Below, one piece after another: positions 18,658-58,461 of a DNA stretch of 64,000 nucleotides; position 1 is the stretch's first letter; every line of letters begins with the position of its first letter. The notes below the pieces were generated by a model. That model ran no database searches. It had not been told where the DNA came from and saw nothing but the letters and a program-made list of their open reading frames with translations. The position numbers and the translations under genes are program-made. Location: assembly GCA_964016885.1 (NCBI GenBank), contig OZ024766.1, positions 15,128,001 through 15,192,000 on the forward strand, given 5' to 3'. The stretch comes from Eledone cirrhosa. Lineage: Eukaryota.

Positions 18658-21600
18658 TTTTTTTTTTCTGATTCCACCCTGCCTGTCCCTTCAATCTTTC
18701 TAATTTCTCATTCTTTCTTCTGATGAAGGACTAGCGTCCAAAACCTTAAAACCCTCTTGTTGCTATTTCAAGTGTTAACCTAATATTTTCTTTCCATATA
18801 CTGTACCGATTGTGTTGTTATCTCTGTTTACACACAATCATCATCATCATCATCATCATTTTACGTCCGCCTTTCCCTGCTTGCAAGGGTTGGACGGGTT
18901 CTATTCAGCGCAGCATCTCTCCACTTGTCACGGTCCTTCGTCATCTCCTCAGATTACATTTATTGTATTCAGCCATGTAGAGTGGAAATTTTATTTTATT
19001 TGAATGTGGCAAAGCCGGTCATTTATTGCTCGTATACAGGAAACTGACTGGCCAGTCTGCTGATATACAAATCTGGCTGATCAGTGGATCTGCTAATATG
19101 CAGATCTGACTGATCAGCCAGTCTGCTAATATGGAAATCAGGCCGATCAGCCACTGTATATTTTAGAAAATAGTATATATTTTCACTAGCTCTGACAGTT
19201 GGCAGGTGAAGAGTGAGCTGTACTGATGAAGGCTGATACCCAGAAAAATTAGTGTCTGCAATTCTGTTTACATGCCAACACAAGAGCAAGAATGATGGGT
19301 TCATTCTATTGACATGGCTTTAAAATTGAGGCTTGTTTGCATAATTGCAGACGAATCGAATGCTATTATTAATATTCGAAAAGGGCGGTAGATTGGCAGT
19401 ATCGGTAGAGGGTCGGACCATGCTTTGACGCATAAAGTTACGGCCCTTGCTATTCTGAGTTCAAATCCCGCTGAGGTTAACTTTGCCTTTCATCCTTATG
19501 GGGTCGATAAAATAAAGTACCAGTAATACACTGGGTAATTGCTGGCCTTGTGCCAAAAGTAGAAACAATTATTAATATTCGAAAAACTCAGATTACATAT
19601 ATATATAGAGATATATATATATGGCTTAAAAGAGAAGATGAATGGTGTGTCTGACACATTGAGGTTGATGGAGACACCTTGCTGAGAGGCATAACACCAG
19701 ACTCTTCAAATTTCATGCTGTTCTGATGCATTGAGATGGAACAGATGCTACCTTTATAACCAGCACCACACCCTCCATTGGAACACACACCTGTCTGACA
19801 GTTGCTACTTCCACAACCAGCACCACATCTTCCGCTGGAACACATACCTGTCTGACAGTTGATACCTTTATAATCAGCACCACACATTCTACTATAACAC
19901 ACACCTGTCTCTGTGTTACACCTGTCTCTGTGTTACATCTGTCTCTGTGTTACACCTACTGTCATCTTGTTTCAATATATTAAGTTACAAACAAAGCTAT
20001 ACTACACCACTTACCTGTCTGACAGTTGCTACCTTCATAACCAGCAGCACATCCGCCACTAAAATACACACCTGTCTGTTTGTTACACCTGTTGTTGTCA
20101 GTACAGTGACAGATGCTTTCGCAGTTGGGTCCAAATTTACCAATATCACAAACTAAACATACAAAAAAAATAGATAAACAAATTCTGAAGAAGTCACGGC
20201 TGTTCCACATTTCTAGTCACTGTACTATTGTAACTAGTACTCTACTAACTACCACTATACTAACTATTGTAACTAGTACTCTACTAACTACTACTACATC
20301 ATTCACTATACTAACTATTGTAACTAGTACTCTACTAACTACCACTATACCATTCACTATACTAACTATTGTAACTAGTACTCTATTAACTACCACTACA
20401 TCATTCACTATACTAACTATTGTAACTAGTACTCTACTAACTACCACTATACCATTCACTATACTAACTATTGTAACTAGTACTCTACTAACTACCACTA
20501 CATCATTCACTATACTAACTATTGTAACTAGTACTCTACTAACTACCACTATACCATTCACTATACTAACTATTGTAACTAGTACTCTACTAACTACCAC
20601 TACATCATTCACTATACTAACTATTGTAACTAGTACTCTACTAATTACCACTATACCAATCACTATACTAACTATTGTAACTAGTACTCTACTAACTACC
20701 ACTACATCATTCACTATACTAACTATTGTAACTAGTACTCTACTAACTACCACTATACCATTCACTATACTAACTACCACTACATCATTCACTATACTAA
20801 CTATTGTAACTAGTACTCTACTAACTACTACTACATCATTCATTATACTAACTATTGTAACTAGTACTCTACTAACTACTACTAAATCATTCACTATACT
20901 AACTATTGTAACTAGTACGCTACTAACTACCACTATACCATTCACTATACTATTATAACTACCACTCTGTAGTAGTAGTAGTGGCACTCCATCGGTTACG
21001 ATGAGTGTTCCAACTGATACAATCAACAGTACAGCCTGCTCGTGAAATTTACATGCAAGTGGCTGAGTATTCCACAAACACGCGTACCCATAATATAGTT
21101 CTCAGGGAGATTCAGCAAGACACAATATGTGACAAGGCTAGCATTTCGAATTACAGGTACAGTTCATTTTTGCCAGCTGAGTGGACTGGAGCAACATGAA
21201 ATAAAGTGTCTTGCTCAAGGACACAGTGGACTGGAGCAACATGAAATAAAGTGTCTTGCTCAAGGACACAGTGGACTGGAGCAACATGAAATAAAGTGTC
21301 TTGCTCAAGGACACAGTGGACTGGAGCAACATGAAATAAAGTGTCTTGCTCAAGGACACAGTGGACTGGAGCAACATGAAATAAAGTGTCTTGCTCAAGG
21401 ACACAGTGGACTGGAGCAACATGAAATAAAGTGTCTTGCTCAAGGACACAGTGGACTGGAGCAACATGAAATAAAGTGTCTTGCTCAAGGACACAGTGGA
21501 CTGGAGCAACATGAAATAAGGTGTCTTGCTCAAGGACACAGTGGACTGGAGCAACATGAAATAAAGTGTCTTGCTCAAGGACACAGTGGACTGGAGCAAC

Positions 21601-27600: not shown

Positions 27601-30600
27601 TGGACACATCCCGGCTCCAATAAATTAGTCATCCCCATTTTTCCTCAACACATGATCCAGCATATCCTTTCATTTCTCTTCATAAATATTATTGACACTA
27701 TTTACATCAATCTCTGCAAAATATTGATTTCCTGCCTCTTTCATGGGGATATTTCACCGGACCATTCTCATTTCAAGTCTCCTCTGCTTTCTCTGTTGTT
27801 CCATCTTCATCAATCATGTCTCACTCTTAAAAATAATGTCACTTCTAACACATTTAGCATACATTTTTCCCTTCCATGTGATGTCTCAATATATTAAGTT
27901 AGAAACCAAGCTATACTACACCACTTACCTGTCTGGCAGTTTCTATCTTCATAACCAGCACCACACCTGTCTGACAGTTGCTACCTTCATAACCAGCACC
28001 ACACCTGTCTGACAGTTGCTACCTTCATAACCAGCACCACACCTGTCTGACAGTTGTTACCTTTATAACCAGCACCACACCTGTCTGACAGTTGCTACCT
28101 TCATAACCAGCACCACACCTGTCTGACAGTTGTTACCTTTATAACCAGCACCACACCTGTCTGACAGTTGTTACCTTCATAACCAGCACCACACCTGTCT
28201 GACAGTTGTTACCTTCATAACCAGCACCACACCTGTCTGACAGTTGCTACCTTCATAACCAGCACCACACCTGTCTGACAGTTGCTACCTTCATAACCAG
28301 CACCACACCTGTCTGACAGTTGTTACCTTCATAACCAGCACCACACCTGTCTGACAGTTGCTACCTTCATAACCAGCACCACACCTGTCTGACAGTTGCT
28401 ACCTTCATAACCAGCACCACACCTGTCTGACAGTTGTTACCTTCATAACCAGCACCACACCTGTCTGACAGTTGCTACCTTCATAACCAGCACCACACCT
28501 GTCTGACAGTTGCTATCTTCATAACCAGCACCACACCTGTCTGACAGCTGATACCTTTATAACAAGCACCACACCTCCACTACAACACACACCTGTCTGA
28601 CAGCTGATACCTTTATAACTAGCACCACACCTCCACTACAACACACACCTGTCTGACAGTTGATACCTTTATAACAAGCATCACACCTCCATTACAACAC
28701 CCACCTGTCTGACACCTGTCTGTTTCCATTACTCCTCTCACAGAGTCACTTTCATCCATCCTCAACACATGACCCAACCATCTCACACCATTTCTTTTCA
28801 CAACATTCATCAGTCGTCCTATCCCCATCATCCTTTTTAAATCATCTTTCAGCAGCCCTCAACTAATCCACTCGATCATTCTCATTTCCATTCTTTCCAT
28901 AATTATTTAAATCTTGTGACTTAAATATTTTTCATATTTCAAAATAATCAATTAAACTTTAAATTGATTTTAAAAAGGTTTTTTTTCTTTACTTTTTAAA
29001 ATATTTATTGAAGTGAAATATTAATTTCTAACATAATCACATGACTTGACATTTGAAGTGATGGGGTGGGGGCTTAAAGTAATACTACCTAGTATTTTAC
29101 TGGTACTTAATTAATCAACCCTGACAGTAGTGATGGATAAACCATTAAGCAAAATAATCACATGTTTAGGGTAACAAGGGAAAAGGGGTAAATTTTAATT
29201 AAATTAAACATATTTTTCATTCTGTCAACACCTTCCATCCAATTTTCTTCCAGAAGTTATTTATGAGGTGAGGGGTGGTGGGGGATGCACACCATCATCC
29301 TTAACCCTTTAGTATTTACATTACCCTATAAATACTATTATATTTTCACGGTAAGGGCTTTATCTCTCATAATTATCTCGCATAATATTGAATCTATGAG
29401 ATTTTGATATTATTTATTTTGAGAACAATACCTTGCTTTGCGGCACAGAGTTACTGCCCTTTGCGTTCTGAGTTCAAAACCCGCTGAGGTTTGCTTTGCC
29501 TTTCATCCTTACGGGGTCGATAAAATAAAGTACCAGTCACGCACTGGGGTCAATTAAATCGACTTTCCCCTGAAGTAAAAATTTCAATCTACACTTCGAC
29601 AATGCTGTTTATTTTAACCCTTTAGTATTTACATTACTCTGTATTTACTATTATATTTTCACAGTAAAGTCTTGTGGAGACACTGCACCCTTTAAAACCT
29701 CCATGCTTCCTGAGATTCGCCAACACTGCACCTAATATTCCCCCTCCATACACACGCACATATGTATATCATGACTCACACTATTCACTTCCCTGACATT
29801 TGTATAAAATAAAGTACCAGTAATGTACTGGGTAATTTGCTGGCCTTGTGCCAAATGTAAAAACAATAATATTGAATCTATGAAATGTTTATATTATTTA
29901 TTTAGAGAACAATACCTTCACATCGATATGCTAAAGGGTTAAACTTGTTAGGGCTTCAAAAGAACTTTATGAGACCCTGCACAGAAAAGTGAAAGACAAA
30001 GTCAACCATGGCAAGATTTGAACTCAGAATAGAATGGTGGTGGTGGTGGTGGTGGTAGTGGTGTAGTGGTGTTAGTGGCAGTGGTGGCTGGTGGTGGTGG
30101 TTGGTAGTGGTTGTGGAGGTGGTGGGGTTGTGGGTGAGGTGGTGGTGGTTGCAGTGGGAGTTGTGGTGGTTGATAGTGATGTTGGGTAGTGGTTGCGGTT
30201 GTGGTTGTGGTAGTGGTGGTAGTAGTGATGATGATGATAATAACAATGATGATATTTATGATGATGATAGTACACCACTTACCTGTCTGACAGTTGCCAC
30301 CTTCATATCCAGGAGCACATCCTCCATTAGAGCAGCTACCAGTCTGTGGCTTACATTTACTCTTGTCAGCACAATGACACATGTTTTGACAGTTTGGTCC
30401 AAATTTTCCTCTCTTACATCCTACAAATCAATCAATAACAAATATATATTTTGGTGTGTATTTGTGTGGCCTTGTGGTAAGGGTGTTGGACTTACAATCA
30501 TAATGTCGTGAGTTCTATTCCTCAACTAGGTTGTGTGTTGTGTTCTTGAGCAAAAGTATTTCCATTCATGTTGCTCCAGTATAATAATAATTGTTTCTAC

Positions 30601-33600
30601 TTTTGACACAAGGCCAGCAATTACCCAGTACATTACTGGTACTTTATTTTATCGACCCCGTAAGGATGAAAGGCAAAGTTAACCTTGGTGGGATTTGAAC
30701 TCAGATCATAAAGGGACGTAACTCTATGCTTCAAAGCATGGCGTCCGACTCTCTACCAATACTGACAATCCACCGCTCCAGTATAATAATAATAATAGTG
30801 AAATTATTGTGTACAGTGCTCAGGTGCACTATAACTCATCAAAGGTGCATGTAAAGCACATAGAATAATGAACAAATGTCAGGAAAATGAACAGTGTATG
30901 AGTCATGATAAACATATGTACGTGTGTATGGAGGAGGGATATCAGGTGTAGTGTTGGCGAATTTCAGGAAGCTTGGAGATCAGTGCCAGTAATAGCTGGT
31001 GATTTAACCTTGGGATGGACTGGTGCCCTGTCCAGGGGAAGTTTTGTATTTTAAGTCACTTCATGCCATAGATAGCACTGGCCTGATGACCCTCAGCACT
31101 CGAGACACACTTTAGACATTTTTTGTTTTTGTATATTCAACAGCCCAGTCCTTCTAACTGTCGGTAGGTATCACACTGAGCAGAGTCCACTGTATTCCCC
31201 ACACCTGGACAGGATGCTAGTCCATTGCATGGTATTTCACTGCTATATTATTCTATCTACTCCAAAAGTATGACAGAAAAAGTTGATTTTGGTGGGATTT
31301 GAATACCGTTTTAAAAAAGAACTCAAAATCACAACCCATTAAAACCTTTAGAATTAAAACCGGTTATATCCGGCCAGAATTCTCACACTTCTTTCTGTTC
31401 AAACCAGCCATAACTGGCTGCTCATACTTATGTTAAGGTATTGTTCTCAAAATAGATATTATCAAAATCTCATAGATTTGATATTATGTGAGATAATTAT
31501 ATGAGATAAAGCCTTTACTGTGAAAATATAATAGTGTATATGAAGTAGTGTAAATACTAAAGGGTTAATCTGTAACTCTACTGCCCCTGCTACTCACATC
31601 TTCCTCATGATCAACATTTAACATTCACTTCCCCTGTAACCAAGAGTGGGATGTGTTAACAGAGACCGACTCAGAACTTAATCGGAGCTACTGACCTCTC
31701 AGATGTTACTGATACATTTCATCATGACTGAAGAGGACATTCATCCATTTGTCTGGTAGATTCTCTAAAGAAATAGAACTACAAAAGAGCACACACGTGT
31801 CTGACAGGTGCTACCTTATAACCAGGACCACACCATCTACTGTAACACACCTGTCTGATAGGTGATACCTTATAACCAGGACCACACCATCTACTGTAAC
31901 ACACCTGTCTGACAGGTGCTACCTTATAACCAGGACCACACCATCTACTGTAACACACCTGTCTGATAGATGATACCTTATAACCAGGACCACACCATCT
32001 ACTGGAACACACCTGTCTGACAGGTGCTACCTTATAACCAGGACCACACCATCTACTGTAACACACCTGTCTGATAGATGATACCTTATAACCAGGACCA
32101 CACCATCTACTGTAACACACATGTCTGACAGGTGCTACCTTATAACCAGGACCACATCATCTACTGTAACACACCTGTCTGATAGATGATACCTTATAAA
32201 CAGGACCACACCATCTACTGTAACACACCTGTCTGACAGGTGCTACCTTATAACCAGGATCACACCATCTACTGTAACACACCTGTCTGACAGCTGCTAC
32301 CATATAACCAGTACCACACCATCTACTGGAACACACGTGTCTGACAGGTGCTACCTTATAACCAGGACCACACCATCTACTGTAACACACCTGTCTGACA
32401 GCTGCTACCTTATAACCAGGACCACACCATCTACTGGAACACACCTGTCTGACAGGTGCTACCTTATAACCAGGACCACACCATCTACTGTAACACACCT
32501 GTCTGATAGATGATACCTTATAACCAGTACCACACCATCTACTGGAACACACCTGTCTGACAGGTGCTACCTTATAACCAGGACCACACCATCTACTGTA
32601 ACACACCTGTCTGATAGATGATACCTTATAACCAGGACCACACCATCTACTGTAACACACCTGTCTGATAGATGATACCTTATAACCAGGACCACACCAT
32701 CTACTGTAACACACCTGTCTGACAGGTGCTACCTTATAACCAGGACCACACCATCTACTGTAACACACCTGTCTGACAGGTGCTACCTTATAACCAGGAC
32801 CACACCTTCTACTGTAACACACCTGTCTGACAGGTGCTACCTTATAACCAGGACCACACCATCTACTGTAACACACCTGTCTGACAGGTGCTACCTTATA
32901 ACCAGGACCAGACCTTCTACTGTAACACACCTGTCTGACAGGTGCTACCTTATAACCAGGACCACACCATCTACTGTAACACACCTGTCTGACAGGTGCT
33001 ACCTTATAACCAGGACCACACCATCTACTGTAACACACATGTCTGATAGCTGCTACCTTATAACCAGGACCACACCATCTACTGTAACACACCTGTCTGA
33101 CAGCTGCTACCATATAACCAGGACCACACCATCTACTGTAACACACCTGTCTGATAGATGATACCTTATAACCAGGACCACACCATCTACTGTAACACAC
33201 ATGTCTGACAGGTGCTACCTTATAACCAGGACCACACCTTCTACTGTAACACACCTGTCTGACAGGTGCTACCTTATAACCAGGACCACACCATCTACTG
33301 TAACACACCTATCTGACAGGTGCTACCTTATAACCAGGACCACACCTTCTACTGTAACACACCTGTCTGACAGGTGCTACCTTATAACCAGGACCACACC
33401 ATCTTCTGTAACACACCTGTCTGACAGCTGCTACCATATAACCAGGACCACACCATCTACTGTAACACACCTGTCTGATAGCTCCTACCTTATAACCAGG
33501 ACCACACTATCTACTGTAACACACTTGTCTGACAGGTGCTACCTTATAACCAGGACCACACCATCTACTGTAACACACCTGTCTGATAGATGATACCTTA

Positions 33601-36600
33601 TAACCAGGACCACACCATCTACTGGAACACACCTGTCTGACAGGTGCTACCTTATAACCAGGACCACATCATCTACTGTAACACACCTGTCTGATAGATG
33701 ATACCTTATAAACAGGACCACACCATCTACTGTAACACACCTGTCTGACAGGTGCTACCTTATAACCAGGATCACACCATCTACTGTAACACACCTGTCT
33801 GACAGCTGCTACCATATAACCAGTACCACACCATCTACTGGAACACACGTGTCTGACAGGTGCTACCTTATAACCAGGACCACACCATCTACTGTAACAC
33901 ACCTGTCTGACAGCTGCTACCTTATAACCAGGACCACACCATCTACTGGAACACACCTGTCTGACAGGTGCTACCTTATAACCAGGACCACACCATCTAC
34001 TGTAACACACCTGTCTGATAGATGATACCTTATAACCAGGACCACACCATCTACTGGAACACACATGTCTGATAGCTGCTACCATATAACTAGGACCACA
34101 CAATCTACTGTAACACACCTGTCTGATAGATGATACCTTATAACCAGGACGACACCATCTACTGTAACACACCTGTCTGACAGGTGCTACCTTATAACCA
34201 GGACCACACCATCTACTGTAACACACCTGTCTGACAGGTGCTACCTTATAACCAGGACCACACCATCTACTGTAACACACCTGTCTGACAGGTACTAACT
34301 TATAACCAGGACCACACCATCTACTGTAACACACATGTCTGATTGCTGCTACCTTATAAACAGGACCACACCATCTACTGTAACACACCTGTCTGACAGC
34401 TGCTACCATATAACCAGGACCACACCATCTACTGTAACACACCTGTCTGATAGATGATACCTTATAACCAGGACCACACCATCTACTGTAACACACCTGT
34501 CTGACAGGTGCTACCTTATAACCAGGACCACACCTTCTACTGTAACACACCTGTCTGACAGGTGCTACCTTATAACCAGGACCACACCATCTACCGTAAC
34601 ACACCTATCTGACAGGTGCTACCTTATAACCAGGACCACACCTTCTACTGTAACACACCTGTCTGACAGGTGCTACCTTATAACCAGGACCACACCATCT
34701 TCTGTAACACACCTGTCTGACAGCTGCTACCATATAACCAGGACCACACCATCTACTGTAACACACCTGTCTGATAGCTCCTACCTTATAACCAGGACCA
34801 CACTATCTACTGTAACACACTTGTCTGACAGGTGCTACCTTATAACCAGGACCACACCATCTACTGTAACACACCTGTCTGATAGATGATACCTTATAAC
34901 CAGGACCACACCATCTACTGTAACACACATGTCTGACAGGTGCTACCTTATAACCAGGACCACATCATCTACTGTAACACACCTGTCTGATAGATGATAC
35001 CTTATAAACAGGACCACACCATCTACTGTAACACACCTGTCTGACAGCTGCTACCTTATAACCAGGACCACACCATCTACTGTAACACACCTATCTGACA
35101 GGTGCTACCTTATAACCAGGACCACACCTTCTACTGTAACACACCTGTCTGACAGGTGCTACCTTATAACCAGGACCACACCATCTTCTGTAACACACCT
35201 GTCTGACAGCTGCTACCATATAACCAGGACCACACCATCTACTGTAACACACCTGTCTGATAGCTCCTACCTTATAACCAGGACCACACTATCTACTGTA
35301 ACACACTTGTCTGACAGGTGCTACCTTATAACCAGGACCACACCATCTACTGTAACACACCTGTCTGATAGATGATACATTATAACCAGGACCACACCAT
35401 CTACTGGAACACACCTGTCTGACAGGTGCTACCTTATAACCAGGACCACACCATCTACTGTAACACACCTGTCTGATAGATGATACCTTATAACCAGGAC
35501 CACACCATCTACTGTAACACACATGTCTGACAGGTGCTACCTTATAACCAGGACCACATCATCTACTGTAACACACCTGTCTGATAGATGATACCTTATA
35601 AACAGGACCACACCATCTACTGTAACACACCTGTCTGACAGGTGCTACCTTATAACCAGGATCACACCATCTACTGTAACACACCTGTCTGACAGCTGCT
35701 ACCATATAACCAGTACCACACCATCTACTGGAACACACGTGTCTGACAGGTGCTACCTTATAACCAGGACCACACCATCTACTGTAACACACCTGTCTGA
35801 CAGCTGCTACCTTATAACCAGGACCACACCATCTACTGGAACACACCTGTCTGAGAAGGTGCTACCTTATAACCAGGACCACACCATCTACTGTAACACA
35901 CCTGTCTGATAGATGATACCTTATAACCAGGACCACACCATCTACTGGAACACACCTGTCTGACAGGTGCTACCACATAACCAGGACCACACCATCTACT
36001 GTAACACACCTGTCTGATAGATGATACCTTATAACCAGGACCACACCATCTACTGTAACACACCTGTCTGACAGGTGCTACCTTATAACCAGGACCACAC
36101 CATCTACTGTAACACACCTGTCTGACAGGTGCTACCTTATAACCAGGACCACACCTTCTACTGTAACACACCTGTCTGACAGGTGCTACCTTATAACCAG
36201 GACCACACCATCTACTGTAACACACCTGTCTGACAGGTGCTACCTTATAACCAGGACCACACCTTCTACTGTAACACACCTGTCTGACAGGTGCTACCTT
36301 ATAACCAGGACCACACCATCTACTGTAACACACCTGTCTGACAGGTGCTACCTTATAACCAGGACCACACCATCTACTGTAACACACATGTCTGATAGCT
36401 GCTACCTTATAACCAGGACCACACAATCTACTGTAACACACCTGTCTGACAGCTGCTACCATATAAACAGGACCACACCATCTACTGTAACACACCTGTC
36501 TGATAGATGATACCTTATAACCAGGACCACACCATCTACTGTAACACACCTGTCTGACAGGTGCTACCTTATAACCAGGACCACACCTTCTACTGTAACA

Positions 36601-39600
36601 CACCTGTCTGACAGGTGCTACCTTATAACCAGGACCACACCATCTACTGTAACACACCTATCTGACAGGTGCTACCTTATAACCAGGACCACACCTTCTA
36701 CTGTAACACACCTGTCTGACAGGTGCTACCTTATAACCAGGACCACACCATCTTCTGTAACACACCTGTCTGACAGCTGCTACCATATAACCAGGACCAC
36801 ACCATCTACTGTAACACACCTGTCTGATAGCTCCTACCTTATAACCAGGACCACACTATCTACTGTAACACACTTGTCTGACAGGTGCTACCTTATAACC
36901 AGGACCACACCATCTACTGTAACACACCTGTCTGATAGATGATACCTTATAACCAGGACCACACCATCTACTGGAACACACCTGTCTGACAGGTGCTACC
37001 TTATAACCAGGACCACATCATCTACTGTAACACACCTGTCTGATAGATGATACCTTATAAACAGGACCACACCATCTACTGTAACACACCTGTCTGACAG
37101 GTGCTACCTTATAACCAGGATCACACCATCTACTGTAACACACCTGTCTGACAGCTGCTACCATATAACCAGTACCACACCATCTACTGGAACACACGTG
37201 TCTGACAGGTGCTACCTTATAACCAGGACCACACCATCTACTGTAACACACCTGTCTGACAGCTGCTACCTTATAACCAGGACCACACCATCTACTGGAA
37301 CACACCTGTCTGACAGGTGCTACCTTATAACCAGGACCACACCATCTACTGTAACACACCTGTCTGATAGATGATACCTTATAACCAGGACCACACCATC
37401 TACTGTAACACACATGTCTGATAGCTGCTACCATATAACCAGGACCACACAATCTACTGTAACACACCTGTCTGATAGATGATACCTTATAACCAGGACG
37501 ACACCATCTACTGTAACACACCTGTCTGACAGGTGCTACCTTATAACCAGGACCACACCATCTACTGTAACACACCTGTCTGACAGGTGCTACCTTATAA
37601 CCAGGACCACACCATCTACTGTAACACACCTGTCTGACAGGTGCTACCTTATAACCAGGACCACACCATCTACTGTAACACACATGTCTGATAGCTGCTA
37701 CCTTATAACCAGGACCACACCATCTACTGTAACACACCTGTCTGACAGCTGCTACCATATAACCAGGACCACACCATCTACTGTAACACACCTGTCTGAT
37801 AGATGATACCTTATAACCAGGACCACACCATCTACTGTAACACACCTGTCTGACAGGTGCTACCTTATAACCAGGACCACACCTTCTACTGTAACACACC
37901 TGTCTGACAGGTGCTACCTTATAACCAGGACCACACCATCTACTGTAACACACCTATCTGACAGGTGCTACCTTATAACCAGGACCACACCTTCTACTGT
38001 AACACACCTGTCTGACAGGTGCTACCTTATAACCAGGACCACACCATCTTCTGTAACACACCTGTCTGACAGCTGCTACCATATAACCAGGACCACACCA
38101 TCTACTGTAACACACCTGTCTGATAGCTCCTACCTTATAACCAGGACCACACTATCTACTGTAACACACTTGTCTGACAGGTGCTACCTTATAACCAGGA
38201 CCACACCATCTACTGTAACACACCTGTCTGATAGATGATACCTTATAACCAGGACCACACCATCTACTGGAACACACCTGTCTGACAGGTGCTACCTTAT
38301 AACCAGGACCACACCATCTACTGTAACACACCTGTCTGATAGATGATACCTTATAACCAGGACCACACCATCTACTGTAACACACATGTCTGACAGGTGC
38401 TACCTTATAACCAGGACCACATCATCTACTGTAACACACCTGTCTGATAGATGATACCTTATAAACAGGACCACACCATCTACTGTAACACACCTGTCTG
38501 ACAGCTGCTACCTTATAACCAGGACCACACCATCTACTGTAACACACCTATCTGACAGGTGCTACCTTATAACCAGGACCACACCTTCTACTGTAACACA
38601 CCTGTCTGACAGGTGCTACCTTATAACCAGGACCACACCATCTTCTGTAACACACCTGTCTGACAGCTGCTACCATATAACCAGGACCACACCATCTACT
38701 GTAACACACCTGTCTGATAGCTCCTACCTTATAACCAGGACCACACTATCTACTGTAACACACTTGTCTGACAGGTGCTACCTTATAACCAGGACCACAC
38801 CATCTACTGTAACACACCTGTCTGATAGATGATACCTTATAACCAGGACCACACCATCTACTGGAACACACCTGTCTGACAGGTGCTACCTTATAACCAG
38901 GACCACACCATCTACTGTAACACACCTGTCTGATAGATGATACCTTATAACCAGGACCACACCATCTACTGTAACACACATGTCTGACAGGTGCTACCTT
39001 ATAACCAGGACCACATCATCTACTGTAACACACCTGTCTGATAGATGATACCTTATAAACAGGACCACACCATCTACTGTAACACACCTGTCTGACAGGT
39101 GCTACCTTATAACCAGGATCACACCATCTACTGTAACACACCTGTCTGACAGCTGCTACCATATAACCAGTACCACACCATCTACTGGAACACACGTGTC
39201 TGACAGGTGCTACCTTATAACCAGGACCACACCATCTACTGTAACACACCTGTCTGACAGCTGCTACCTTATAACCCGGACCACACCATCTACTGGAACA
39301 CACCTGTCTGAGAAGGTGCTACCTTATAACCAGGACCACACCATCTACTGTAACACACCTGTCTGATAGATGATACCTTATAACCAGGACCACACCATCT
39401 ACTGGAACACACCTGTCTGACAGGTGCTACCTTATAACCAGGACCACACCATCTACTGTAACACACCTGTCTGATAGATGATACCTTATAACCAGGACCA
39501 CACCATCTACTGTAACACACATGTCTGATAGCTGCTACCATATAACCAGGACCACACCATCTACTGTAACACACCTGTCTGATAGATGATACCTTATAAC

Positions 39601-42600
39601 CAGGACCACACCATCTACTGTAACACACCTGTCTGACAGGTGCTACCTTATAACCAGGACCACACCATCTACTCTAACACACCTGTCTGACAGGTGCTAC
39701 CTTATAACCAGGACCACACCTTCTACTGTAACACACCTGTCTGACAGGTGCTACCTTATAACCAGGACGACACCATCTACTGTAACACACCTGTCTGACA
39801 GGTGCTACCTTATAACCAGGACCACACCTTCTACTGTAACACACCTGTCTGACAGGTGCTACCTTATAACCAGGACCACACCATCTACTGTAACACACCT
39901 GTCTGACAGGTGCTACCTTATAACCAGGACCACACCATCTACTGTAACACACATGTCTGATAGCTGCTACCTTATAACCAGGACCACACCATCTACTGTA
40001 ACACACCTGTCTGACAGCTGCTACCATATAAACAGGACCACACCATCTACTGTAACACACTTGTCTGATAGATGATACCTTATAACCAGGACCACACCAT
40101 CTACTGTAACACACCTGTCTGACAGGTGCTACCTTATAACCAGGACCACACCTTCTACTGTAACACACCTGTCTGACAGGTGCTACCTTATAACCAGGAC
40201 CACACCATCTACTGTAACACACCTATCTGACAGGTGCTACCTTATAACCAGGACCACACCTTCTACTGTAACACACCTGTCTGACAGGTGCTACCTTATA
40301 ACCAGGACCACACCATCTTCTGTAACACACCTGTCTGACAGCTGCTACCATATAACCAGGACCACACCATCTACTGTAACACACCTGTCTGATAGCTCCT
40401 ACCTTATAACCAGGACCACACTATCTACTGTAACACACTTGTCTGACAGGTGCTACCTTATAACCAGGACCACACCATCTACTGTAACACACCTGTCTGA
40501 TAGATGATACCTTATAACCAGGACCACACCATCTACTGGAACACACCTGTCTGACAGGTGCTACCTTATAACCAGGACCACACCATCTACTGTAACACAC
40601 CTGTCTGATAGATGATACCTTATAACCAGGACCACACCATCTACTGTAACACACATGTCTGACAGGTGCTACCTTATAACCAGGACCACATCATCTACTG
40701 TAACACACCTGTCTGATAGATGATACCTTATAAACAGGACCACACCATCTACTATTACACACCTGTCTGACAGGTGCTACCTTATAACCAGGATCACACC
40801 ATCTACTGTAACACACCTGTCTGACAGCTGCTACCATATAACCAGTACCACACCATCTACTGGAACACACGTGTCTGACAGGTGCTACCTTATAACCAGG
40901 ACCACACCATCTACTGTAACACACCTGTCTGACAGCTGCTACCTTATAACCAGGACCACACCATCTACTGGAACACACCTGTCTGACAGGTGCTACCTTA
41001 TAACCAGGACCACACCATCTACTGTAACACACCTGTCTGATAGATGATACCTTATAACCAGGACCACACCATCTACTGGAACACACCTGTCTGACAGGTG
41101 CTACCTTATAACCAGGACCACACCATCTACTGTAACACACCTGTCTGATAGCTGCTACCATATAACCAGGACCACACCATCTACTGTAACACACCTGTCT
41201 GATAGATGATACCTTATAACCAGGACCACACCATCTACTGTAACACACCTGTCTGACAGGTGCTACCTTATAACCAGGACCACACCATCTACTGTAACAC
41301 ACCTGTCTGACAGCTGCTACCATATAACCAGGACCACACCATCTACTGTAACACACCTGTCTGACAGCTGCTACCTTATAACCAGGACCACACCATCTAC
41401 TGTAACACACCTGTCTGACAGCTCCTACCTTATAACCAGGACCACACTATCTACTGTAACACACTTGTCTGATAGCTGCTACCTTATAACCAGGATCACA
41501 CCATCTACTGTAACACACTTGTCTGATAGCTGCTACCTTATAACCAGGACCACACCATCTACTGTAACACACCAGTCTGACAGGTGCTACCTTATAACCA
41601 GGACCACACCATCTACTGTAACACACCTGTCTGATAGATGATACCTTATAACCAGGACCACACCATCTACTGTAACACACCTGTCTGATAGATGATACCT
41701 TATAACCAGGACCACACCATCTACTGTAACACACCTGTCTGATAGATGATACCCTATAACCAGGACCACACCATCTACTGTAACACACCTGTCTGACAGG
41801 TGCTACCTTATAACCAGGACCACACCATCTACTGTAACACACCTGTCTGATAGATGATACCTTATAACCAGGACCACACCATCTACTGGAACACACCTGT
41901 CTCACAGGTGCTACCTTATAACCAGGACCACACCATCTACTGTAACACACCTGTCTGACAGGTGCTACCTTATAACCAGGACCACACCATCTACTGTAAC
42001 ACACCTGTCTGACAGGTGCTACCTTATAACCAGGATCACACCATCTACTGTAACACACCTGTCTGACAGGTGCTACCTTATAACCAGGACCACACCATCT
42101 ACTGTAACACACCTGTCTGATAGATGATACCTTATAACCAGGACCACACCATCTACTGTAACACACCTGTCTGACAGCTGCTACCTTATAACCAGGACCA
42201 CACCATCTACTGTAACACACCTGTCTGATAGATGATACCTTATAACCAGGAACACACCTTCCACTGGAACACACACCTGTCTCTGTCTTACACCTGTCTC
42301 TGTGTTACACCTACTATCATCTTGACTAAATATATTAAGTAACAAACAAAGCTTACCTGTCTGACAGTTGCTACTTTCATAACCAGCAGTACATCCTCCT
42401 CTAGAACACACACCTGTCTGTTTGTTACATTTACTGTTGTCAGCACAGTAACATGTGTTGCCACAGTTGGCTCCAAATTTTCCATTTCTACAGACTGTGG
42501 AAATAAAAATATGAGAACAATGACAATAACAACAACATATAACACTATACAAGATAATGCTTCTGATTTAGGCACAAGGCCAGCAATTTTAGGGGAGGAG

Positions 42601-48600: not shown

Positions 48601-51600
48601 CATAGACAGTGTCTTTTATTAGATATATGGTAATGAAGGGGTTAATGACATAGACAGTGTCTTTCATTAGATATATGGTAATGCAGGGGTTAATAACATA
48701 GGTAGTGTCTTTCATTAGATATATGGTAATGAAAGGGTTAATGACATAGACAGTGTCTTTTATTAGATATATGGTAATGAAGGGGTTAATGACATAGACA
48801 GTGTCTTTCATTAGATATATGGTAATGAAAGGGTTAATGACATAGGTAGTGTCTTTCATTAGAAATATGGTAATGAAAGGGTTAATGACATAGACAGTGT
48901 CTTTCATTAGATATATGGTAATGAAGGGGTTAATGACATAGACGGTGTCTTTCATTAGATATATGGTAATGCAGGGGTTAATAACATAGGTAGTGTCTTT
49001 CATTAGATATATGGTAATGAAAGGGTTAATGACATAGACAGTGTCTTTTATTAGATATATGGTAATGAAGGGGTTAATGACATAGACAGTGTCTTTCATT
49101 AGATATATGGTAATGAAAGGGTTAATGACATAGACAGTGTCTTTCATTAGATATATGGTAATGAAGGGGTTAATGACATAGACAGTGTCTTTCATTAGAT
49201 ATATGGTAATGCAGGGGTTAATAACATAGGTAGTGTCTTTCATTAGAAATATGGTAATGAAAGGGTTAATGACATAGACAGTGTCTTTCATTAGAAATAT
49301 GATAATGAAAGGGTTAATGACATATAGTTTCTTTCATTAGAAATATGGTAATGAAAGGGTTAGTGACATAGACAGTGTCTTTCATTAGATATATGGTAAT
49401 GCAGGGGTTAATAACATAGGTAGTGTCTTTCATTAGAAATATTGTAATGAAAGGGTTAATGACATAGACAGTGTCTTTCATTAGAAATATGATAATGAAA
49501 GGGTTAATGACATATAGTGTCTTTCATTAGAAATATGGTAATGAAAGGGTTAATGACATAGACAGTGTCTTTCATTAGATATATGGTAATGCAGGGGTTA
49601 ATAACATAGGTAGTGTCTTTCATTAGATATATGGTAATGAAAGGGTTAATGACATAGACAGTGTCTTTTATTAGAAATATGGTAATGAAAGGGTTAATGA
49701 TATAGACAGTGTCTTTCACTAGATATATGGTAATGAAGGGGTTAATGACATAGACAGTGTCTTTCATTAGAAATATGGTAATGAAAGGGTTAATGACATA
49801 GGTAGTGTCTTTAATTAGAAATATAGTAATGAAAGGGTTAATGACATAGACAGTGTCTTTTATTAGAAATATGATAATGAAAGGGTTAATGACATAGACA
49901 GTGTCTTTCATTAGAAATATGGTAATGAAAGGGTTAATGACATAGGTAATGTCTTTAATTAGAAATATAGTAATGAAAGGGTTAATGACATAGACAGTGT
50001 CTTTCATTAGAAATATGGTAATGAAAGGGTTAATGACATAGACAGTGTCTTTCATTAGAAATATGGTAATGAAAGGGTTAATGACATAGGTAATGTCTTT
50101 AATTAGAAATATAGTAATGAAAGGGTTAATGACATAGACAGTGTCTTTCATTAGAAATATGGTAAGGAAAGAGTTAATGACATAGACAGTGTCTTTCATT
50201 AGATATATGGTAATGAAAGGGTTAATGACATAGACAGTGTCTTTCATTAGAAATATGGTAATGAAAGGGTTAATGACATAGACAGTGTCTTTCATTAGAA
50301 ATATGGTAATGAAAGTGTTAATGACATATACAGTGTCTTTCATTAGAAATATGGTAATGAAAGGGTTAATGACATAGACAGTGTCTTTCATTAGAAATAT
50401 GGTAATGAAAGGGTTAATGACATAGACAGTGTCTTTCATTAGAAATATGGTAATGAAAGGGTTAATGACATAGGTAATGTCTTTAATTAGAAATATAGTA
50501 ATGAAAGGGTTAATGACATAGACAGTGTCTTTCATTAGAAATATGGTAAGGAAAGAGTTAATGACAGACAGTGTCTTTCATTAGATATATGGTAATGAAA
50601 GGGTTAATGACATAGACAGTGTCTTTCATTAGAAATATGGTAATGAAAGGGTTAATGACATAGACAGTGTCTTTCATTAGAAATATGGTAATGAAAGGGT
50701 TAATGACATATACAGTGTCTTTCATTAGAAATATGGTAATGAAAGGGTTAATGACATAGACAGTGTCTTTCATTAGAAATATGGTAATGAAAGGGTTAAT
50801 GACATAGACTGTGTCTTTCTTTAGAAATATGGTAATGAAAGGGTTAATGACATATACAGTGTCTTTCATTAGAAATATGGTAATGAAAGGGTTAATGACA
50901 TAGACAGTGTCTTTCATTAGAAATATGGTAATGAAAGGGTTAATGACATATACAGTGTCTTTCACTAGAAATATGATAATTGTTTCTACTTTTGGCACAA
51001 GGCCTGCAATTACCCAGTGTATTACTGGTACTTTATTTTATCGACCCCATAAGGATGAAAGGCAAAGTTAACCTCGGCGGGATTTGAACTCAGAATGGCA
51101 AGGGCCGTAACTCTATGCGTCAAAGCATGGCGTCCGACCCTCTACCGATACTGCCAATCCAATTAGATATATGATAATGAAAGGGTTAATGACATAGACA
51201 GTGTCTTTCATTAGAAATATGGTAATGAAAGGGTTAATGACATAGACAGTGTCTTTCATTAGAAATATGGTAATGAAAGGGTTAATGACATATACTGTGT
51301 CTTTCATTAGAAATATGGTAGTAGGAAGTTTAATTACTATACTGACAGTTGCTACCTTCATAACCAGCAGCACATCCTCCACTAGAGCATACACCTGTCT
51401 CTATGTTACACCTGATGTTGTTTTGTTTCAATATATTAAGCTACAGACTAAGCTATACTACACAACACACTTCATTGGAACACACACCTGTCTCTGTGTT
51501 ACATCTCGCTGTTTGTTACACGTCTCTGTATGTTACACCTGCTGTTGTCTTGACCCACTATATTAAGTTATAAACAAAGCTATACTACACCACTTACCTG

Positions 51601-53992
51601 TCTGACAGTTGCTACCTTCATAACCAGCAGTACATCCTCCACTAGAACACACACCTGTCTGTTTGTTACATTTACTGTTGTCAACACAGTGACATGTGTT
51701 GCCACAGTTGGCTCCAAATATACCATTTCTACAGACTGTGGAAATAAAAATATGAGAACAATGACAACAACAACAACATATAACACTATACAAGATAATC
51801 ATCATCTTCATCATTACCATTTAATGTCCATTTTCTATGCTAGCATGGGTTAGATATACTGTCCCATTGTGAGAAAAGTTGGGTCAGATGGCCATGTCTT
51901 GCTTATGCAGAACTGATTTGGGATTGGTTTTGATGGCTGGATGCCCTTCCAAATGCCAACCACTTTACAGTGTGGACTGGGCACTTTTTGTTGTGTCACC
52001 AACTTGACCACTTTACAATGAGAGCTGAGCACTTTTTGTTGTGGCATTATCACAACCATTTTACAGTGTGTGCTGGGCACTTTTTGTTGTGGCACTATCA
52101 CAAGCACTTTATAGTGTGGGCTGGGCATTTTTGTTGTGGCACTATCACAACCACTTTACAATGAGGGCTGGGCACATTTTGTGTCACCAACATGACCACT
52201 TTACAGTGTGGGCTGGGCATTTTCGTTGTGGCACTATCGCAACCACTTTACAGTGTGGACTGGGGACTTGAGTGGGGCAGTTGCATGGGGATTGAGGAGG
52301 TAGATTTAGGGGCATGGGTGAGGGGTGGGGATTTAGTAGCTCACTGACCTTTCTTCAACCCATTCTCACACTGGCTACTGTGCTTTCAGAACACCTTCAT
52401 CCACTGCAAGTAACAGAAACTATGTACCACTTCTTCATAACCAGCACCACACCCTCTACTGTAACACACCTGTCTTACAGTTGCTATCTTCATAACCATC
52501 ACCACACACTTCACTGGAACACACACCTGTCTCTGTGTTACATCTAGCTGTTTGTTACACCTGCTGTTGTTAGTACAGTGACATGTGTGTTTACAGTTAG
52601 GTCCAAATTTACCTGCTTTACACCCTGAAAATAAAAATATGGAATGTTCTGCATGAGTATGTGGTCGAATGACAGCTCCTTGCTCCGATAAATCATGTCA
52701 CTTCTAACACATGTAGCATACATGTTTCCCTTCCATGTAATAACCCAATATATTAAGTTAGAAACAAAGCTATACTACACCACTTACCTGTCTGACAGTT
52801 GCTACCTTCATAACCAGCAGCACATCCTCCACTAGAACACACACCTGTCTCTTTGTTACACCTGCTGTTATCAGCACAGTGACATGTGTATTTACAGTTG
52901 GGTCCAAATTTACCTGTTTACAGACTGTGGGTATTAAATATGAGAACAATGACAATTACAGCAACATATAACACTATACAAGATAATAAATATCATAATT
53001 ATATCATCTATATATATGGTGGCACATGGCTTAATGGTTAGAGCATTGGCCTTGCAATTGAAAGGTTGTGAGTTCAATTCTGAGACCGGGTGATGTGTTG
53101 TTTCCTTGAGCAAGACACTTTATTTCACATTGCTCCAGTTTACTCAGCTGTAGAAATGAGATGATAGGGACTGGGGTCCCTATCATTCCACTGTAAAGTG
53201 GTCGTGGAGGTGCCATGGCAAAAAAGCACCCACTACTCACTGTAAATAAGGTTGGTGTTAGGAAGGACATCCAGCTGTAGAAATCAAGCCAGAATCAGTT
53301 TCCGTCCCACCCTTGCAAGCAGGGAAAAGCGAACGTAAAATGATGATGAGTCTAACCCATGCTGGTGTGGAAGATGTACGTTATACGAAGATGATGATGA
53401 TATAGTATTGTCATCTATCATCTATACTATATCTCTACAACCTATATGATATCTATATCCTATATATTATATCTAATCATCTGTATTATATCTATATCAT
53501 CTGTATTATATCTATATCATCTGTATTATATCTATATCATCATAACCAGCATCACACCTGTCTCTGTCTGTTTTTTTACACCTGCTGTTGTTTTGTTTCA
53601 TATATCAAGTTAGAAACAAATCTGTACTACAGTACTTACCTGTTTGACAGTTGCTACCTTCATAACCAGCAGCACATCCTCCACCTGAACACACACCTGT
53701 CTCTTTGTTACACCTGCTGTTATCTGCGCAGTGACATGTGTATTTACAGTTGGCTCCAAATTTACCTGTTTTACAGACTGAAAATAAAAATATGGAAGTC
53801 TAAATATATTTAATAATTCACATTAATTTCTGATATTTTCATATTTTACATGGTAGACATTATTTGAATTTTGAAAATGTGAGACCAGAGAAATTGCTTC
53901 ATGTGACACTGTAAGAAAACATTAAAGAAAACATAAAAAAATGAAATGTATATCTTCTTCTTTATCATTAAGAATGTCAGCAGCAGCAGCAC

Positions 53993-54024
<32 letters not shown>

Positions 54025-54560
54025 CAGAGAGAGAGAGAGAGAGAGAAGAGAGAGAGTAGTTAATAATAAATACAAAGACCAAAATCTAGAGAGGGCTCAA
54101 TAAGATAAGAGTTTTATGTATATGTATATATATACATATATATGTATCATCATCATCATCATCATCATTTTACGTCCACTTTTCCCTGGTTGCGAGGGTG
54201 GGACGGAAACTGATTCTGGCTTGATTTCTACAGCTGGATGCCCTTCCTACCACCAACCTTATTTACAGTGAGTGCTGGGTGCTTTTTTGCTGTGGCACCT
54301 CCACGACCACTTTGCAGTGGAATGATAGGGACCGCAATCCCTATCATCTCATTTCTACAGCTGAGTAAACTGGAGCAATGTGAAATAAAGTGTCTTGCTC
54401 AAGGAAACAACACATCACCCGGTTTGAGAATTGAACTCACAACCTTTCGATTGCAAGGCCAATGCTCTAACCACTAAGCCATAGAGAGAGAGAGAAGTGA
54501 GAGAGTAGTTAATAATAAATAGAAACACCAAAATCTGGAGAGGGCTCAATAAGATAAGAG

Positions 54561-54610
<50 letters not shown>

Positions 54611-56482
54611 TCAATACATAAACAGAGAAAGCCTTAAGCGATACTCTGACCAACACCATCTCACTCAACAAACATTAGGATATACCTAAGTATTATCCCA
54701 ATTTAGTGTTTGGGGTGCTAACTAATCAGTATTTCGTGGATAGCTGGTTGTATTATTTTATATGAGACATTATTAAATAAATATCTCTTTCCCTCCAGAC
54801 GGCCGTTTCATTATAAGATTTCTACAATTTGGAATAAATAATTTCCAGGTTATGTAGAAACTTGTATATAATCCATAGTTTTATACACAAGTGGGCTCTT
54901 ATAAACTCATCAGTGGATGCCCAAATAATATCGATATAAGAATTATATCGACATTAATAGATTAGTGATGGTCTCCCTCAACGCTAAGAAGAGACTGGTA
55001 GTTCAGAAAATCCAGCAGTCCTCTCAAAGATAAAATACACGCTGTACCCAAAAGGGTAAAGGGAGGTCATCTTAAAATAAACCAATATACACGCTGGTCA
55101 TTTAAACCTGTTAGGTATTAACCACATGTATAAGAACTCAATTGGATAGTAAAAGAATAACTATATGTATACACAACCAATGCACACATAGAGATAACAC
55201 ATAATAAATACATGTATGGATCCCCCATATACACACACAGCCACTCTCTAAGGCTAAATCAGACATGGGATACAAGGAAGATCAATCAGTATTTCATATA
55301 AAAAATAATAATAATAAAGTGCAGGGTGATAAAAATTAACGGTAGCCACGGAGCAGGCAGACTCAGAAAAACCTGGGATGACTTGATAAATTCCGACCTC
55401 ACACCTCTCCAAGACAATGTCACTGGACCGAGATCTTTGGCCCCACACAGAAGACCCGCCTTGCCTAAGTACAAAGCGAAACCTACAGTCAGTAGGCACC
55501 TCTAACAAAATACACCCCTGTCCCACTACCCCACCCCATCCACACCACCCCCTTAAATGTGAAGTTATGTTGGTACCACAACATCCAGTCCGAAACAAAT
55601 GAGGTTGTGTAGGTGTCACAACAGAAAAAACACACAGTCCACGCTGTAATGTGGCCGTGTAGGTAACACGGTAAAAACCTCCCAGTCCACACTGTAAACG
55701 TGGTTGGTGTTAGGAAGGGCATCCAGCCATAGAAAACTTGCCAGTCAGTCCTATACGAGCAGGACAACGAATATTGCCTCAAGTGGGAAAACTCCCGTCC
55801 AAACCCATGCAAGCGTGGAAGATGGACGTTAAACGATGATAATGATGATGATGATGATGATGAAAGAGAGTCATACCTTATATCTGGAAATCATATCTGG
55901 CCACCAAGAGTATATATTCAATACATAAACAGAGAAAGCCTTAAGCGATACTCTGACCAACTCCATCTCACTCAACAAACATTAGGATATACCTAAGTAT
56001 TTTCCTAATTTAGTGTTTGGGGTGCTAACTAATCAGTATTTCGTGGATAGCTGGTTGTATTATTTTATATGAGACATTATTAACTAAATATCTCTTTCCT
56101 TCCAGACGGCCGTTTCCTTATAAGATTTCTACAATTCGGGATAAATAATTTCCAGGTTATGTAGAAACTTGTATATAATCCATAGTTTTATACACAAGCG
56201 GGCTCTTATAAACTCATCAGTGGATGCCCAAATAATATCGATATAAGAATTATATCGACATTAATAGATTAGTGATGGGCTCCCTCAGCGCTAAGAAGAT
56301 CCAGCGCTTAGAAAATCCAGCAGTCCTCTCAAAGATAAAATACACGCTGTCCCCAAGAGGGTAAGGGGAGGTCATCTTAAAATAAAACAATATACACGCT
56401 GGTCATTTAAACCTGTTAGCTATTAACCACGTGTATAAGAACTCAATTGGATATTAAAAGAATAACTATATGTATACACAAT

Positions 56483-56544
<62 letters not shown>

Positions 56545-57000
56545 CAAATATTTCAAATATTTCAGATCAGTGGTTGGCGTTGGGAAGGGCATCCAGCCGT
56601 AAAAAAACAGTCAGAAACTCTCGTATATGAGCGAGACATGGTCACTTGACCCAACATGCCTCTAAATGGGACAACCCTGTCTAACCCATGCTAGCATGGA
56701 AGATAGACGTTAATTGATGATGATGATGATACATACATATATATATAGCTACATTACACCACTTACCTGTCTGACAGTTGCTACCTTCATAACCAGCAGT
56801 ACACCCTCCACTGTAACACACACCTGTCTCTGTGTTACATTTGCTGTTGTCTGCACAGTGACAATTTCTACTACAGCTGGGACCAAACTTTCCTACAGGA
56901 CACACTATAGAAAATATTTAAAATTCACTTCTAATATTCACTCACTTTTTTCAGGTAACATGTTTGATGTTTGTAAAACCTATGAAGACCTGCACTATAT

Positions 57001-57050
<50 letters not shown>

Positions 57051-58461
57051 TATACATATATATATATACACATATATATACATATATATATATATACACA
57101 TATATATATACATATATACTGAAGTAAAAGTTAAGTGGAAATATCCAAGAGTAAGAGCACTCAGTCCATAGGACGAGTTTAGTATAAATAATTACAACAG
57201 TGACATAAACAGGTACTCAAGTTTGAATGGGTTCTGGGCCCCAATTTCTTCAGCCTGTCATGAGATGTTTTCCATTTTCCTCATGACAGGCTGAAGAAAT
57301 TTGGGGCCGAGAACCCAACGAAACTTGAGTACCTGTTTATGTCACTGTTGTAATTATTTATATCTATATACATATATATATATATATATATATTCAAAAT
57401 TAATTAAATTAAATTAAATTAGATTAAGGGAGTCATGTCCAAGACATGCGCCATATCCACCGTAGAATAAGCTCAAAGATTTCAATGAATAGATCCGAGC
57501 ATTTTATATCAACTAGAAATAGATTGACATATATATATATTTAAAATAAACACATGAAACAATGACAGGGTATAATTTGTAAAGTGTGTAATCACACATA
57601 GCTAGGTAGGTAACTAATTAAAGTTTAACTAGAGCTTCAAATATTTCCTTTTTAAAAAATTAATCATTTTTTAATTATTTTTTAAAAAGGTAATATTTGA
57701 AGCTCTAGTTAAACTTTAATTAGTTACCTACCTAGCTATGTGTGATTACACACTTTACAAATTATGCCCTGTCATTGTTTCATGTGTTTATTTTAAATAT
57801 ATATCTATGTCAATCTATTTCTAGTTGATATATATATATATATCCAGGGAGTGTAACATGAAGTTACTGTAGGTTCACCCAGGTGAGCACTCAATCTTTA
57901 GATTCTCGTCCATCATTACAACAGCAGAGGTCTGACGACCTTTTGATTCCTCAGTCTGGCTAGATCAATACTGATCAAACTTTGAGCTGAGCAATAGCAA
58001 AACGTGCATCACCAATCAATAAATGTAATGAAGGCTTAACAAATCGTCATTGTATTATTATTATTATACACACACACACACATATATATGTATATATAAA
58101 TATATATATATATATTTATATATATATCACAGAAAAAAAGATAGGAAAATCTGCTTCATAGAATCAAAACGTATCTGAGGACCTTGCGATTTTCAGAGTC
58201 AGGTTTGATCATCACATCGATCGTGCCTCGAGCTGGTCGCCAGAGAAACAATTGTAATATGTCCAATAAATTCCATTCGTCGCAACACTGATTCCCTTCT
58301 TTTCTGTGACATCATACTCTGCTCTATGAGAGCATTGAGTGCTCAAATGGCCTACCTCATACGGACACTTTAAGCATCCAACACCAATTATATATATATA
58401 TATACACACACACATATATATACACACCCACACACATATATATATATATACACATATGTAT

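Follow-up and report, generated by a model that had tools for sequence, protein, structure and literature searches.

The two hammerhead motifs found in an intron of Eledone cirrhosa are consecutive units of a dispersed, non-coding tandem repeat with a 765-nt unit and a branched stem II of 97 nt in its ribozyme. We consider it likely that this repeat is a retrozyme-like, non-autonomous member of the Hydra-type Penelope elements, and cleavage as a dimer is predicted. The motifs lie in a 64,000-nt stretch of genomic DNA, which is referred to below as the window.

Two hammerheads in one intron

The first-pass annotation had placed two type I hammerheads on the minus strand, and we recovered both, with their cores and predicted cut sites at the claimed positions (Table 1). 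It had estimated about 95 nt between the halves of the core; we counted 97 nt between CUGAUGA and GAAA in both copies. Each motif has a stem I of 4 bp and, just before the cut site, the palindromic stem III ACGGCCGU that had been described for it, and the three helices proposed for stem II were reproduced by folding (z of -2.6 and -4.3 relative to 200 shuffles). Both motifs are on the sense strand of the host gene and, as proposed, within a single GT-AG intron, the flanking exons of which are called EGF-like from a Pfam match to EGF_STAB1-2 (E 1.5e-4) that falls under the cut-off of that family. When the full 64 kb was scanned with a strict type I pattern, this pair was returned along with one unrelated match that has a 22-nt stem II, and a short-stem hammerhead pattern gave 0 matches across the window. 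Likewise, an Rfam search of the window from 50 to 60 kb gave no hammerhead among 57 matches with E up to 5. Since the strict pattern has 247 matches in the genome and its reversed control has 0, the window motif is not a product of chance.

Table 1. Features of the intronic insert and its hammerheads, by position in the window
Feature	Position	Strand	Basis or remark
Host intron	53778..56766	-	flanked by 138-nt EGF-like exons 56904-56767 and 53777-53640
(TA)n on the 5' side of the insert	56485-56541	.	repeat scan
First unit, 5'-truncated, about positions 179-765 of the 765-nt unit	55919..56486	-	alignment to L022 unit
Second unit, first 56 nt (unit 1-56), directly continuing the first unit	55863..55918	-	100% identical to natural tandem L022
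Later insertion, 543 nt, 3' end of a LINE-type repeat	55320..55862	+	4-nt duplication at ends
Second unit, remainder (positions 53-765)	54612..55319	-	alignment to L022 unit
(TA)n at the 3' end of the insert, likely target site	54562..54607	.	repeat scan
Hammerhead copy 1	56101..56224	-	stem I 56224-56221 with 56104-56101; core from 56220; predicted cut 56105/56104
Hammerhead copy 2	54794..54917	-	core from 54913; predicted cut 54798/54797
Branch hairpin A of stem II, copy 1	56168..56198	-	fold; most compensatory changes of any helix
Branch hairpin B of stem II, copy 1	56127..56166	-	fold; 7-bp base near-invariant
5' tail strand UGGGC, putative pseudoknot half	56226..56230	-	predicted to pair with junction strand GCCCG, 56203-56199

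The motifs had been described as parts of 570-bp direct repeats. The similarity was confirmed, at 95% identity over 578 nt, but the repeat unit is 765 nt long and its remainder lies inside what had been taken for a spacer. At other loci (L022, L039 and L057), uninterrupted head-to-tail units place one hammerhead 765, 760 and 758 nt from the next. Read against the natural L022 unit, the window contains unit 156-765, unit 1-56, 543 foreign nt and unit 53-765, and the match to unit 156-765 (L001, 1465-2072) begins with about 20 nt of (TA)n. The 543-nt piece also occurs elsewhere apart from the 765-nt unit, and it is 86% like the end of an insert of approximately 3.9 kb whose ORF matches Pfam Exo_endo_phos_2. 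The window hammerheads are neighbouring units of one insert, parted by the later insertion of a LINE tail. The distance of 1,307 nt between them is made up of 764 nt of unit and the 543-nt insertion, indicating that the spacing is accidental.

Both window copies have a non-canonical 10.1-11.1 pair, as had been noted, but this proved to be a local change, the family pair being G-C. At position 11.1, where the family has C, copy 1 has G (56117) and copy 2 has U (54810). Closure of the helix is still possible through a wobble or a shift in register by one base, and from their base changes the window copies are probably weakened, not surely dead.

The pair had been proposed to excise a 1,307-nt RNA or to influence exon inclusion, such that the host gene would use two intronic hammerheads in cis. 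The location of both motifs on the sense strand of one intron is consistent with this proposal, as are the 8 of 14 host-gene-type loci that keep two units and the residual cleavage that a wobble or shift at 11.1 might allow. However, the spacing derives from a unit and a later insertion, both window copies lack C11.1, and two unaltered motifs were found in none of the 14 host-gene-type loci examined. Six of these loci have the G/U pair at 11.1, and one more has a U copy with the other motif not parsed. At L008, the palindrome of one copy is broken and the other copy carries U11.1. In the remaining 6 of the 14, only one copy, bearing A11.1, lies within the stretch examined; the second unit and the insertion are absent from 2 of these 6 single-copy loci (9.9-kb stretch). 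Moreover, the window and host-locus copies diverge from the column majority by 2.3-3.4%, as much as the dispersed copies do (mean 3.1%). Neither the excision of a 1,307-nt RNA, nor control of exon inclusion, nor a designed intronic pair is therefore supported, and we regard the use of the pair in cis by the host gene as very improbable. A host regulatory device is unlikely, the intronic pair is probably an aged passenger, and the paired intronic arrangement is incidental and of little importance.

Among sense-intron copies, position 11.1 is changed in three ways, to G, U and A (window 56117 and 54810; L008; L009-L014). These changes are among approximately 10 in the 130-nt motif of the sense-intron copies, versus 1 of 27 in dispersed copies, a comparison that is post hoc and in part concerns a CpG site, and that suggests selection against self-cleavage within the host intron. 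The EGF-repeat segment of the host (window 51598-56904) has at least 14 near-identical copies on four contigs (G000 C20, C16, C22 and C27), some of which carry a 3.9-kb LINE at the position of the window's second unit. In run X4, the kind of which is unrecorded, a joint connects one exon to another across approximately 3,000 nt, which hints that the host gene family has a spliced form; two other runs are without the joint. Pieces of the 765-nt unit are present in run X4 at low depth. None of the three runs, which were available as assembled contigs, a form that does not reveal RNA ends, had an accumulation of ends listed.

The window contains several other repeats. A 54-nt tandem array of 194 copies occupies 31791-42274, its unit resembling the 3' end of an EGF-like exon together with a splice donor, and related arrays with 38- and 57-nt units lie at 27927-28576 and 19758-19910. 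An inverted pair of 324-nt repeats that are 95% complementary (54159-54482 and 53026-53349) lies on either side of the exon at 53640-53777. A tRNA-like head is present on one of the arms, and the pair could form double-stranded pre-mRNA around this exon. The next intron has near-perfect inverted repeats at 57505-57832 and 57183-57362, with arms of 156 nt and 65 nt, which are likely small DNA transposons.

A dispersed, non-coding 765-nt unit

We searched the genome (3.0 Gb) for further copies. A DNA search for the repeat yielded 3,031 candidates, of which 40 were scored, and ends and truncations were counted in 30 loci chosen by the core pattern. A fixed 3' end, 186 nt past the cut site, is found in 26 of these 30 loci; 24 run into TA repeats, 6 contain more than one piece of the unit, and the 5' starts scatter from unit position 1 to 668. 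Tandem neighbours share non-majority bases at 1.46% per site, compared with 0.30% for random pairs, or approximately 5 times as often (24 pairs), although 4.7% of sites differ between them. In the window pair, shared non-majority bases number just 4 in 463.

Conservation of the motif was scored in 36 loci not selected by the core (35 places, as two coincide). The core elements CUGANGA, GAAA and UH follow one another in that order, with each position retained in at least 33 of the 36, and the closing pair is retained as G10.1 in 36 and C11.1 in 35; the search patterns used had already set stem I and part of stem III. The 765-nt unit has a GC content of 33% and no long ORF, and an ORF for a reverse transcriptase with a C-terminal endonuclease, bearing the Hydra markers RWK, DKT and CxCx5C (PMC8557442), is absent from it. 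Thus, the 765-nt unit is a non-coding tandem repeat with one type I hammerhead per unit. Related subfamilies have units of 708-1,009 nt.

This organization resembles that of the animal non-LTR retrozymes, as characterized in the accessible portions of two reports (Cervera and de la Pena 2020, PMC7229834; Li et al. 2026). Those elements are likewise non-coding and head-to-tail with one type I hammerhead per unit, low in GC, dispersed, and proposed to be mobilised by Penelope elements. Circular RNA has been reported for retrozymes (PMC7229834), and the accessible part of a preprint argues that they are non-autonomous Penelope derivatives (bioRxiv 10.64898/2026.07.22.740005). Unlike the retrozymes, which are described there as approximately 300 nt long with a canonical short stem, the present family has a 765-nt unit and a three-way stem II of 97 nt, and consists mostly of truncated singles and partial dimers.

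The branched stem II domain and a candidate pseudoknot

The branched stem II had been put forward as a possible undescribed hammerhead variant. We assembled a covariation alignment of 40 motifs (38 distinct) comprising the 2 window copies, 6 of the 30 main-family loci and 32 of 44 subfamily rows; a single short outlier was left out, as were rows that duplicated a place already included. The related-subfamily pattern itself has 2,222 matches in the genome and 0 in the control. In the alignment, 95.7% of cells are paired, compared with 37-50% in slid controls. Double changes were observed in 8 of 33 pairs (shuffle mean 5.4; 4/500 shuffles), counts that go back to a small number of subfamily events, passed on to many copies, and are not independent. 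By helix, these pairs divide into four from hairpin A, two from the stem III palindrome and one each from the basal helix and hairpin B, that of hairpin B being seen in a single sequence. RNAalifold alone recovers hairpins A and B, without the basal helix.

The stem III palindrome changes as a whole, with GGCC, GAUC or AAUU at its centre. At the inner pair of this stem, 6 of 6 changes are double in the loci not picked by the core, and the tally of 153 palindromic centres among 163 is inflated by the search patterns. The suggestion that such a palindrome is suited to dimers agrees with the computed energies: in the monomer, the hammerhead fold lies 5.5-8.8 kcal/mol above the minimum-energy fold, and the palindrome duplex is at -14.1. 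All three stems were found, with stem I open-ended, and in these computations stem III is stable only as a dimer. These fold energies are consistent with the dimer cleavage described for Penelope hammerheads in the accessible parts of two reports (PMC4209133, PMC6765202). The closing pair shifts between G-C and U-U, one subfamily having U10.1-U11.1 at its base. This pair is described as natural and tolerated in the accessible text of PMC3088659, and it matches many Hydra hammerheads in File S2 of PMC8557442.

An Rfam check of 5 loci gave 0 matches at the gathering score. For natural hammerheads, the accessible portions of the literature yielded no branched stem II this large, and the supplements of the 2011, 2014 and 2020 papers and of the 2026 preprint may hold long-stem cases. 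A "long" helix II is one of 6-8 bp in the accessible parts of PMC4209133 and PMC13725137, Hydra stems are of 7 bp or less and a spike-moss element has a 9-bp stem with a loop of approximately 35 nt (PMC8557442 File S2), and PMC10085705, as far as its text is accessible, deals with permuted hammerhead forms. The motif is like the minimal hammerheads of Penelope pLTRs (Cervera and de la Pena 2014, PMC4209133, accessible portion) in being type I, with a 4-bp stem I, a palindromic stem III and, by prediction, dependence on dimers. However, the "large" helix II of 6-8 bp in that report is unbranched and has an extra base after A9, whereas here G10.1 comes directly after A9 and two hairpins follow. 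The branched domain is conserved, covaries and was not found in print, in keeping with the proposed variant.

The sequence next to stem I is also patterned. Throughout the family, the first junction strand (GCCC and its flanks) could base-pair with the 5' tail beside stem I, which reads UGGGCA, and in the 765-nt-unit family this complement is nearly invariant. A second family, with a stem II of 47-59 nt, has GAGC/GCUC or GAGU/ACUC at the same positions, which amounts to one compensatory change. Its 20 rows comprise 11 with C-G, 4 with U-A and 5 others, several of these 5 being misaligned by one column, and the paired fraction of its helix is 70%, a value lowered by one-column aligner shifts in several rows. 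A matching pairing was not evident in the two autonomous families described below, for which the cross-family control was noisy and dominated by AT-rich matches. A pseudoknot joining the 5' tail to the junction is probable on this modelling. Pseudoknots from the stem I side to the stem II side are known in all three hammerhead types according to the accessible text of Perreault et al. (2011, PMC3088659), and the contact predicted here is similarly a base-paired one between stem I and stem II. Unlike the pseudoknots described there, its predicted partner would be a junction strand followed by a 70-nt domain of two hairpins. A family with a 47-59-nt stem II and the palindrome ACCAUGGU is abundant (L145-L154) and occurs with tandem periods of approximately 660-720 nt and in inverted pairs.

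Probable Penelope affinity and a proposed transposition cycle

Long stem II domains are not confined to the 765-nt unit. A relaxed pattern that allows 30-130 nt between the core halves has 2,468 matches in this genome, compared with 61 in the control, and 20 stretches taken from it contain many families with differing stems. Two protein-coding families of Hydra-type Penelope elements have stem II domains of 88-94 nt. Stem II is short, in the ordinary way, in a third Hydra-type family. Three Hydra-type protein frames searched against Pfam matched none of its families. In the first of the two protein-coding families, one locus (L265, G000:C4:172531500-172536600) has the arrangement pLTR-ORF-pLTR, in which a 785-aa ORF with RWK, DKT and CxCx5C is flanked on each side by a motif with a rod-like stem II of 88 nt, and the motif is present in 26 of 30 copies of the family. 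This family (L265 and L235-L264) is young, with its 785-aa ORF intact, a rod-like stem II of 88-92 nt and a 3' UTR of approximately 1.2 kb, and at least 150 copies among the matches listed have 96-100% protein identity in the endonuclease region.

In the second family, which has a 94-nt stem II, the motif lies approximately 145 nt before the (TA)n end, and matches to a Hydra-like reverse transcriptase or endonuclease were found upstream in 17 of 20 loci. The conserved U4 of the core is replaced by C in 18 of 20 copies, and the fold of the motif is no better than that of shuffles (z -0.4). In this group (L158, L161 and L165-L184), the bases at C4 could pair with sequence just past the cut site, perhaps as an off-state.

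Assignment of the window motifs to type I hammerheads of the Penelope and retrozyme kind, as made in the first-pass annotation, is supported. Like Hydra-clade elements (Craig et al. 2021, PMC8557442), the 765-nt family has (TA)n targets, a hammerhead near a fixed 3' end, a stem III of the A-C...G-U type, 5' truncation and partial tandems, and some families have a U-U closing pair. It differs from them in that the unit is without an ORF, and the published Hydra hammerheads have a stem II of 7 bp or less with loops of 10 nt or less (File S2). Among the loci examined, which sample the genome, no autonomous element shares sequence with the 765-nt unit. When the unit was compared in translation with local Penelope proteins, nothing significant emerged; its matches to the 3' UTR of the young Hydra family were confined to simple repeats, and no Hydra-type ORF was matched between unit copies lying 2.7, 4.6 and 7.7 kb apart. 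Consequently, the Hydra link rests on architecture and target preference. Penelope ORFs near copies in L095, L219 and L220 were considered as partners and rejected as separate insertions, parted from the copies by (TA)n or other sequence.

Target preference alone is shared more widely. Naiads target (TA)n too, and eight of them are marked with core halves 35-50 nt apart (PMC8557442), which would allow the 765-nt unit to be the pLTR of a Naiad-clade element, one of the "half-core" cases of Craig et al. However, the octopus Naiad consensus, of which two were inspected by eye, has GAAA before CUGAUGA, the reverse of the order here, and the long-stem-II motifs that are tied to an ORF sit in Hydra-type elements. 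We consider a Naiad origin of the unit to be exceedingly improbable. By eye, the end of the Naiad-1_Nbra consensus (PMC8557442 supplement) has a type I core in which the base of stem II is paired and the halves are approximately 50 nt apart. This motif is unflagged in the table of that paper and hints that long-stem-II motifs also occur in a nematode Naiad.

For a non-autonomous Hydra-type element, we propose the following cycle. A tandem copy would be transcribed, and the 8-nt palindromes of two hammerheads would pair with each other. Stem I would probably contact stem II through a short pseudoknot that joins the 5' tail to the first junction strand, such that the two extra hairpins would lie beyond that contact. 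Dimer cleavage would release a 765-nt monomer, which may circularise. A Hydra-type reverse transcriptase and endonuclease acting in trans would nick (TA)n, and copying would start 186 nt downstream of the cut and run for a variable length, leaving partial tandems. An internal start of copying has been shown for a Poseidon element, according to the accessible part of PMC11167929.

The same element could also move with little or no help from cleavage, its motif serving mainly as a folded signal for the Penelope protein that cuts weakly or not at all, and its tandems arising from linear multimers and internal priming instead of circles. In the Poseidon study, as far as it is accessible, hammerhead mutants left in vitro insertion unaffected and no reads ended at the cut; cleavage was thus dispensable in vitro, which keeps this explanation alive. 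Minimal Penelope hammerheads are reported to cleave poorly in vitro (PMC4209133, accessible portion), U4 is replaced in most copies of the autonomous family with the 94-nt stem II, and tandem neighbours still differ at an appreciable fraction of sites. On the other hand, many families retain the core, the closing pair and self-complementarity in stem III even as the stems change, and this is what dimer catalysis would preserve. A motif that acts mainly as a signal therefore seems doubtful to us, and we favour the cycle that includes dimer cleavage.

These motifs are a real and well-supported structural variant; the ribozyme itself is a known one, and so is the kind of mobile element that carries it. 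Beyond this, they may belong to an undescribed, active class of type I hammerheads, a broader proposal that we advance tentatively. Its members would have a stem II of 45-110 nt that is often branched and a pseudoknot with the 5' tail, would occur in Hydra-type Penelope elements and in non-autonomous circles of 650-1,000 nt, and would number thousands per genome while being invisible to Rfam and to descriptors written for short stems. If this is true, the extra domain would be a handle recognised by the Penelope protein, and long-stem motifs may explain some of the Penelope elements reported without hammerheads.

The naturally selected 97-nt branched domain shows that descriptors in current use can overlook thousands of motifs within a single genome. 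This has a bearing on how retrozymes are counted, and on the claimed absence of hammerheads from some Penelope clades. For RNA switches, a ribozyme with room for so large a stem II domain also offers a natural scaffold. Finally, with series ready for covariation analysis and a young autonomous element whose ORF is intact, these families make the role of the hammerhead in Penelope transposition testable.
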